From a virus (Duplodnaviria; Heunggongvirae; Uroviricota; Caudoviricetes), in IMG/VR virus record IMGVR_UViG_2698536476_000004: 7,637 nucleotides of DNA; one strand, 5' to 3'. Position numbers and translations under genes: made by a program. The notes beneath the pieces are model-generated. The model did not search any database, was not told the DNA's origin, and saw only the letters and a program-made list of their open reading frames with translations. How positions within the stretch are numbered: the first letter of the stretch is position 1; each line of letters opens with the position of its first letter. Shown piece by piece: positions 1 to 160 of this stretch.

Positions 1-119
1 CACGCTGAAAAATTACCTGAACCTTTCTGGTCAAGAGCGATGTTAATTTGTTCAATCATCTGGTTTGGAAATCGGATGTTGCGGGTTGTTGTTCTGCGGG
101 GCCGGTTTTTCGATGACAT
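1..119 (-). CDS. Partial CDS (first 39 codons; continues past the left edge): putative ribbon-helix-helix (Arc/MetJ/CopG-like) DNA-binding protein, possibly a repressor or antitoxin
   Basis: Manual reverse-complement translation from the ATG at complement 119..117 gives MSSKNRPRRTTTRNIRFPNQMIEQINIALDQKGSGNFSA with no stop before the window edge. A Shine-Dalgarno-like AGAGGA lies 6 nt upstream on the minus strand (complement of 124..129). The pattern of basic N-terminal arm, short beta-strand (RNIRFP) and helix (NQMIEQINIALDQKG) resembles RHH proteins. Only 39 codons are visible and this ORF is not in the supplied track, which lists none that run off the window edge. Confidence 0.35.
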   Translation of the reverse strand, partial: MSSKNRPRRTTTRNIRFPNQMIEQINIALDQKGSGNFSA

Positions 120-160
120 TTTCTTTCCTCTGGTGACAAGCTATATGGCGAGGATTTTAC

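Follow-up and report, generated by a model that had tools for sequence, protein, structure and literature searches.

The gene at the left edge of the window

The DNA analysed here, referred to as the window, is the 7,637-nucleotide Caudoviricetes record IMGVR_UViG_2698536476_000004 of IMG/VR. Its left edge carries the 5′ part of a minus-strand gene that faces away from a phage packaging module. This is an ordinary prophage gene, already annotated, of the named YlcI/YnfO (DUF3950) family, and the evidence from sequence comparison and structure prediction supports reading its product as a ribbon-helix-helix (RHH) protein. The features of the left end are as follows.

1..119, minus strand: YlcI/YnfO-family (DUF3950) gene, 5′ part (codons 1–39 plus 2 nt, of 74 codons)
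126..131, minus strand: Shine-Dalgarno-like AGAGGA, 6 nt 5′ of the ATG, read from the sequence
161..526, plus strand: HNH endonuclease gene, the first of an HNH-terS-terL packaging module (Pfam HNH 29.7 bits; RefSeq annotation)
221..249, minus strand: sigma-70-like match (-35 CTGACA, 17-nt spacer, -10 CAGAAT; 9/12 matches), a weak candidate

The first-pass annotation of this DNA had described a minus-strand reading frame starting at complement 119 behind a ribosome-binding site, and both are as described. Positions 119..1 translate as MSSKNRPRRTTTRNIRFPNQMIEQINIALDQKGSGNFSA, the frame still being open at the window edge, and on the same strand AGAGGA (131..126) is followed by the 6 nt AAGAAA and then by the ATG (119..117). 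The portion inside the window encodes a basic arm, a predicted β-strand (N14–F17), helix A (residues 19–32) and the start of helix B. In the extended locus L001, where the position minus 6000 gives the window position, the complete gene occupies 5895–6119 on the minus strand. The other 35 codons are outside the window, to its left (L001 5895–6000), where the open reading frame (ORF) runs 105 nt past the edge to give a 74-aa product.

Over its first 1400 bases the window matches an E. coli O103:H2 PV16-126 prophage at 100% identity and the Shiga toxin (Stx) phage BP-4795 at 98.5%. In both records the ORF has 74–75 codons and is annotated as a "YlcI/YnfO family protein" or a "DUF3950 domain-containing protein". 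The leftward extension that the first-pass annotation had called for thus yields a complete ORF of 74 codons in the PV16-126 prophage, not a very short one.

The full protein scores 70.6 bits against Pfam PF13132 (DUF3950; cutoff 25), above the family threshold, and the 39-residue window fragment alone reaches 36.9 bits against the same cutoff. It also scores 35.7 bits with NCBIfam NF041551 (cutoff 30) and matches phrog_949 with an E-value of 9e-32. The family core, IRF...NFSAWV-x-(D/E)-AC in proteins of about 50–80 residues, is present in the window protein. That is, I15, R16, F17, N36–V41, A44 and C45 are all there, and these residues are invariant or nearly so in the alignments (A1, A3 and A6); T12, N14 and R16 are invariant across the lambdoid subfamily. 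The gene ynfO is listed as uncharacterised (PMC11551758), and no functional study of ylcI, ynfO or DUF3950 was found in the literature.

Evidence for a protein-coding gene

Between the window allele and the copy in phage λ (see below), codons 1–49 show 17 synonymous changes and 4 that are non-synonymous (dS 0.87, dN 0.036, omega 0.04). This pattern of substitution indicates that the protein is strongly constrained; the ORF is a real protein-coding gene, far beyond a chance ORF. It had been considered that the plus-strand frame open across 1..234 might be the end of an upstream gene instead. The ORF in that frame, 40..234, begins at an internal ATG, does not form the tail of any gene further upstream, and is unannotated.

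The λ, DLP12 and Qin types share with the window type an island of DNA homology of 135–148 bp, which extends from exactly the ATG (position 119) to about codon 45–49, with 86–88% identity in DNA and 92% in protein. Only two upstream contexts occur among 80 viral contigs, the cos-nu1 region of λ and the HNH type of the window, and the C-terminal tails assort independently of them, implying recombination inside the conserved block. Residues 50–74 are disordered in the structural model (predicted local distance difference test, pLDDT, about 40) and in close homologues their place is taken by unrelated sequences. Such a block, beginning right at the ATG and with crossovers falling inside it, might be conserved as DNA, i.e., as a recombination linker between phage modules of about 150 bp in which the ORF is incidental. 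We regard this as highly improbable, and the substitution pattern already contradicts it: the protein is more alike than the DNA. In addition, homologues from Enterobacterales and Pasteurella at only 35–55% identity keep the pattern of arm, strand, helix and helix.

A monocistronic unit beside the packaging genes

The HNH start lies 41 nt from the start codon of the YlcI-like gene, and the two genes are divergent, in agreement with the orientation first proposed. To the right, HNH (161–526), the small terminase subunit TerS (817–1380), the large subunit TerL, a protease-capsid fusion and the portal make up an HK97-type packaging and head module. The GC content is 35–45% in the accessory stretch that holds the gene vs 53–58% in the packaging genes.

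A hairpin, AAAAAGCGAC-N7-GTCGCTTTTT (L001 5850–5876), flanked on both sides by A and T runs, is found 18 nt past the stop codon; a simple terminator scan made no call there. Beyond it comes a PerC-family gene on the plus strand (L001 5499–5813), convergent with the YlcI-like gene. From the hairpin and the convergent neighbour it follows that the YlcI-like gene is monocistronic and has no partner. The arrangement elsewhere is similar: the next gene is the convergent ybcW/lambdap79 in λ and DLP12, and convergent AntA or another gene in the satellites described below. No co-directional neighbouring gene was found in the window phage, λ, DLP12 or the satellites examined. The hairpin and the GC contrast give the gene the terminator of its own and the distinct composition that characterize a moron.

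The PerC-family regulator gene was recorded 313–501 nt left of the window. In enterohaemorrhagic E. coli, the locus of enterocyte effacement (LEE) is under the control of prophage genes of the PerC/Pch type, and a member encoded by a phage-inducible chromosomal island (PICI) is reported as a LEE repressor (PMC11773190).

The proposed ribbon-helix-helix fold

The RHH fold was first suggested by a basic arm, an RNIRFP strand and a following helix, and this reading is supported. In two single-chain AlphaFold runs, residues 1–18, which include the NIRF strand, are extended, followed by helices at 19–32 and 34/37–49. A Foldseek search of the PDB with a compact 50-residue model returned five matches, to NikR (root-mean-square deviation 1.9 Å), StnY (two chains), a HicAB complex and the N-terminal domain of MazE9, and all five are RHH-type domains. 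NikR and HicB are RHH proteins.

A bridging protein connects the family to a recognised RHH domain, as follows. The loci L169 and L170 represent one E. coli island, located in both cases at a single site beside yhdJ, and are 96–97% identical on both sides of one slot. Where L169 has a YlcI/YnfO protein, L170 has a 63-aa protein that RefSeq names "HicB family antitoxin". This protein passes both Pfam PF05534 HicB (23.5 bits, cutoff 21) and NCBIfam NF041551, YlcI_YnfO_N (30.1 bits, cutoff 30). PF05534 is an RHH domain, as known from HicB structures. In hhalign, a DUF3950 profile built without the L170 protein aligns with it along 48 columns, which span the strand and both helices, with a probability of 95.4% and an E-value of 1.7e-8; a shallow profile of lambdoid members only gives an unchanged register (E 0.0016), and BLASTP finds 42% identity (E 1e-7) to a member of the S2 subfamily. 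Thus, through the L170 protein, DUF3950 has detectable homology to a recognised RHH family and is interchangeable with its domain.

Other comparisons are in keeping with this assignment. Among 18 divergent members of the family, 8 have a match in a HicB-like PHROG, the best with an E-value of 6e-5; weak matches to three PHROGs of Arc-like repressors are also present. Alignments by hhalign to textbook RHH sequences, used as support only, place NIRFP on the NLRWP strand of Arc and align NikR and Mnt in register through the strand and both helices, with low probabilities. Arc, NikR and Mnt score best (E 0.002–0.05), ahead of the negative controls, with MazE (0.072) close to Mnt (0.053). Direct sequence and profile searches of the PDB gave chance-level matches only, the best in register being the RHH protein CdbA (E about 1), and Pfam scans of the 18 divergent members found no named RHH family. 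The N-terminal domain of P0228 was considered as a different fold swapped into the same place and was rejected; it is itself a DUF3950, though highly diverged, and provides no independent evidence.

Copies in λ and the spread of the family

An intact 64-codon YlcI gene is present in phage λ (NC_001416, complement of 48109–48303; L003 2710–2904), where the reference record leaves it unannotated. It is identical to YlcI of E. coli K-12; its start codon lies 199 nt from the right cohesive end, and the gene is about 1.4 kb from bor. The precedent originally cited for an opposite-strand accessory gene next to the packaging region, λ bor, was therefore aptly chosen, as λ carries both bor and a ylcI copy. 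The K-12 ylcI gene is transcribed from its uninduced cryptic prophage, with 50% or more of RNA-seq samples showing a convergent ybcW-ylcI overlap (PMC12288877). By analogy, the window gene is probably expressed from its prophage.

Clustered at 50% identity, the family is small, with 109 clusters in a set of 1.84 billion proteins, and its range is Enterobacterales and Pasteurella only. Matches were also met in Streptomyces, Cohnella, Flavobacterium, Enterococcus and other genera, on contigs of about 3.5 kb or at contig ends (L007–L033, L036–L039, L053 and L062) that are 100% phage λ right end, with R, Rz and bor. Because these sequences are the λ right end, the matches in unrelated phyla are almost certainly contamination of the assemblies by control DNA. 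Many noisy ENA protein matches of the family have a contamination origin likewise.

Satellite homologues and their operator-like arrays

Outside lambdoid phages, the homologue, here called Y, sits in islands of the order integrase-AlpA-AntA-...-primase, i.e., in P4-like and PICI-like satellites, some of which carry their own capsid genes. In these satellites Y is the sole gene on its strand; facing away from it is an operon whose first gene is Icd-like and which extends into the primase. Within 170 nt upstream of Y are 12-bp palindromes, GTG-N6-CAC, at about −100, −76 and −30 from its start. Across 13 satellite loci these number 36, against 0.43 expected when the remainder of those loci is taken as background (P about 1e-55). 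Other Y subfamilies have palindromes of their own at fixed positions, namely TGGTACGTACCA-type sites at −45 and −12, GTAAC-N3/6-GTTAC, and GTGGAnTCCAC at −100, −77 and −31.

The bases at the centre of the sites vary together with the N-terminal arm of Y, with rho 0.52–0.71 for positions 12 and 14 (Mantel P 2e-4) and 0.59 for residues 2–9, whereas no covariation is seen with the helices (rho −0.05). With the spacer DNA that physically separates the sites from the codons the correlation is weak (rho 0.22), which argues against simple linkage. Covariation of this kind cannot assign site specificity to single residues of the arm. In the pair L169/L170 the repeats and the gene have been exchanged as one cassette, while Icd and primase stay 96.6% identical. 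It follows that the repeats belong with Y, not with the replication proteins, and this pattern is the one expected for an autoregulating repressor and its operators. The arrays thus point to the satellite Y proteins being autoregulating repressors, with candidate operators upstream.

For Gram-negative PICIs the global repressor is unclear, AlpA being an activator (PMC6092414). AntA/Bro proteins and immunity RNAs have been placed in the satellite regulatory zone in an account where the Y gene goes unmentioned (PMC10111431). The "repressor" of EcCIMP1, examined as a possible member of the YlcI family, was rejected; it is a PerC/ANR protein.

Several further observations concern the Y region. In its leader the Icd-like operon carries a conserved hairpin, at about −165 to −125 with respect to Y (e.g., L061 3835–3880). 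The hairpin shows compensatory changes between elements (GCCCGG...CCGGGC vs GCCTCG...CGGGGC), and a T-rich run follows it on the Y strand. No Rfam family matches it at threshold, a SymR-like match being sub-threshold (36.7 bits, gathering score 61); the hairpin is possibly an antisense or immunity RNA. Moreover, the Y slot of some PICI-like islands is occupied by natural 120–142-aa proteins in which the DUF3950 domain is fused to the N-terminal ~50 residues, the DNA-binding part, of a Terminase_2 small terminase (L087 4714–5103; L088 8001–8429; P0188, P0220 and P0226–P0229). Such a fusion may bind DNA with two heads or act as a decoy for the TerS sites of the helper. In L088 (Logan SRR33017773), the integrase-Y-primase island lies between prophage HNH-terS and tape-measure/tail genes, an arrangement that looks like the helper-embedded PICI of the type described in PMC10111431.

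The upstream region of the window gene

A promoter and operator had been expected in 120..200 of the window; none could be shown there. The sole promoter-like match upstream of the gene, at 221..249, is inside the HNH coding region and touches a single GTGCACTGCCAC 12-mer. Two sigma-70-like sites were found vs 1.0 ± 1.0 expected, which is not above chance. One GTG-N6-CAC occurs at −141 from the window ATG, and there are 5 in 13.4 kb overall. Inverted repeats in the window-type upstream region are at chance level, without excess. The two lambdoid upstream types share no k-mers of 9 or longer. The site GGTA-NN-TACC, expected on the basis of an S2 member that shares T12, N14 and R16, is at chance level in the lambdoid subfamily. 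A 7-mer, TAACGTA, near −60 is common to both lambdoid upstream types; it is not significant and serves as a lead only. Thus, the repressor-type role suggested at first is plausible by virtue of the satellite homologues, while no operator was found for the window copy.

Other features of the locus

Between HNH and terS, window positions 618–746 hold a cluster of GTTAACAT-type repeats (5 exact copies vs 0.12 expected) that includes the palindrome GCCAGTTAACA|TGTTAACTGGC. The cluster is found only in loci with the packaging module of the window, and its repeats are candidate TerS recognition sites of the cos region. Just past the HNH stop, at 527–587, a run of about 10 Gs (535–544) and a C-rich run (578–587) are partly complementary and are possibly part of the cos site.

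Further to the right, an ORF after the portal gene (6612–7600) encodes at least 3 copies of the peptide repeat IPVPRDGRDYDP-E/D-VL-K/Q-QAV.... The portal region is frameshifted according to RefSeq in the identical record, and two "portal" ORFs are annotated in BP-4795. To the left, three tRNA genes are followed by the small RNAs STnc100 (170.9 bits) and AgvB (56.2 bits, at the gathering score) in L001 791–1420. This stretch lies 3′ of the Q antiterminator gene, about 4.6–5.2 kb left of the window, and is typical of Stx-type prophages.

Proposed function and alternatives

We propose, with moderate confidence, that the gene is a stand-alone, monocistronic accessory gene of the YlcI/YnfO family that encodes a small, dimeric, sequence-specific RHH DNA-binding regulator. 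The 49-residue N-terminal domain would be the RHH module, consisting of a basic arm, two helices and one strand predicted to pair with its counterpart in a second subunit; residues 50–74 would be a disordered tail that differs between phages. The dimer would read DNA through its arm and strand. The gene would be transcribed from a promoter of its own, opposing late transcription, and from this orientation the protein is expected to be made mainly in the lysogen, like the products of other low-GC accessory genes. We infer the dimerization, DNA binding, repressor activity and lysogen expression of the window protein.

RHH domains are common in antitoxins, and the first-pass annotation had allowed for an antitoxin whose partner would lie just beyond the window. 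A type II toxin-antitoxin pair, with the toxin gene immediately to the left, could also draw on weak matches to the HicB-like, ParD2, TacA and RelB families and on the RefSeq name of the L170 slot-mate. The gene context already refutes it, and the idea has very little chance of being correct: only the last 35 codons, the hairpin and the convergent PerC-family gene lie past the edge, the next gene is convergent in every context examined, and no adjacent co-transcribed toxin gene is present in any of them. A conserved C-terminal toxin-binding segment is lacking as well, since the tail at 50–74 is disordered and unrelated between alleles, and no meaningful PADLOC match and no defence-system model were obtained for the protein. 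The constant position of the lambdoid copies beside cos or packaging genes, with two unrelated modules, invites a different role, that of an accessory DNA-binding factor for packaging at or near cos, acting with the small terminase. The gene is 199 nt from the cos end in λ, precedes nohD in DLP12 and is 41 nt from HNH in the window, and there are at least 5 natural fusions of DUF3950 to the N-terminal 50 residues of TerS, whose TerS part is 60–64% identical to the TerS of the window. We nevertheless find this role doubtful. The gene opposes the late operon, so that late transcription should silence it during packaging; the satellite fusions and stand-alone Y lie in the regulatory zone by the Icd-primase operon, not with packaging genes; the GTTAACAT repeats of the window's cos region form no clusters in the fusion-bearing satellites; and no motif is common to the two lambdoid upstream types. 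Moreover, the fused TerS part has no oligomerization domain, and the RHH domain may only supply dimerization.

The phage copy might instead act on satellites, forming mixed dimers with Y repressors or competing for their operators, and so trigger or block satellite induction. Helix B, NFSAWV-I/L-D/E-AC, is nearly invariant in phage and satellite proteins and would be the dimer interface in RHH proteins, whereas the reading arm differs; in satellites, the TerS part of the Y fusions is a close relative of the window-type TerS. In addition, λ as a helper turns on alpA of PICIs through a factor yet to be named, and Gram-negative PICIs have no known master repressor (PMC6092414). The case is purely inferential, and we consider such an action rather unlikely: the phage copy is apparently expressed during lysogeny, not on induction, which is a poor fit for an inducer, and it is present in many genomes without such islands. 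A broader, speculative proposal, for which we see only a slim chance, is that YlcI/YnfO proteins are operator-binding repressors of the Icd-primase operon in Gram-negative PICI- and P4-like satellites, and that the lambdoid copies at cos, among them the unannotated λ gene, share their dimer interface and engage in cross-talk with them. If true, induction or repression of the satellite would be coupled to the helper phage.

What is added here to the existing annotation is the assignment of the fold via a bridging protein, the lack of a toxin partner, the operator-like cassettes of the satellites and the unannotated λ copy. The family is carried by most E. coli genomes via prophages, by λ, and across Enterobacterales and Pasteurella. 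With the family placed among RHH proteins, YlcI and YnfO, both from the "y-ome" of E. coli K-12, gain a concrete hypothesis, and a false lead is removed, as there is no toxin-antitoxin pair at the window edge. The satellite members, with their exchangeable operator cassettes, are testable candidates for the Gram-negative PICI repressor, which is described as unclear (PMC6092414).

Comparison with known systems

The closest relatives are YlcI (DLP12) and YnfO (Qin) of E. coli K-12. The window protein falls within the same family by curated thresholds, is 92% identical over residues 1–49 and, like them, is encoded just upstream of packaging genes in divergent orientation. It differs in having its own C-terminal tail (74 aa, "...INEKYSQFVPNKDKHDQSTCSDRFT") and in that its gene adjoins an HNH-terS module, not cos-nohD.

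The likeness to the HicB-type RHH domain (PF05534) rests on the L170 protein, which occupies the YlcI slot and passes both PF05534 and NF041551, whereas the window protein itself is below the PF05534 threshold. In contrast to HicB systems, the window protein has no HicB N-terminal domain and no nearby HicA toxin gene, and is a predicted stand-alone DNA-binding domain. Arc and Mnt of the immI region of phage P22 are likewise small phage-encoded RHH proteins of similar size. The comparison with immI, which draws on the immI regions of P1 and P22, extends to the satellite homologues, whose gene faces an operon led by an Icd-like gene near an AntA antirepressor. Arc and Mnt show no significant direct sequence match to the window protein (E 0.002–0.05, against single sequences), and the lambdoid copies, unlike arc and mnt, do not adjoin an antirepressor and have no operator that was found.

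The satellite Y proteins can also be compared with Stl/Rpr of Gram-positive PICIs (PMC6092414), which share the layout of a lone gene divergent from a replication operon with repeated sites over both promoters. Fold and size are unrelated, the likeness concerns the satellite homologues and not the phage copy of the window, and repression by Y is only predicted.

Finally, Bor is an outer-membrane lipoprotein, whereas the window protein is a predicted cytoplasmic DNA-binding protein. In its layout, the window gene resembles bor and the other morons between Rz and cos of λ: it is a low-GC, self-contained unit that lies on the opposite strand of the same accessory region and has a terminator-like hairpin of its own.
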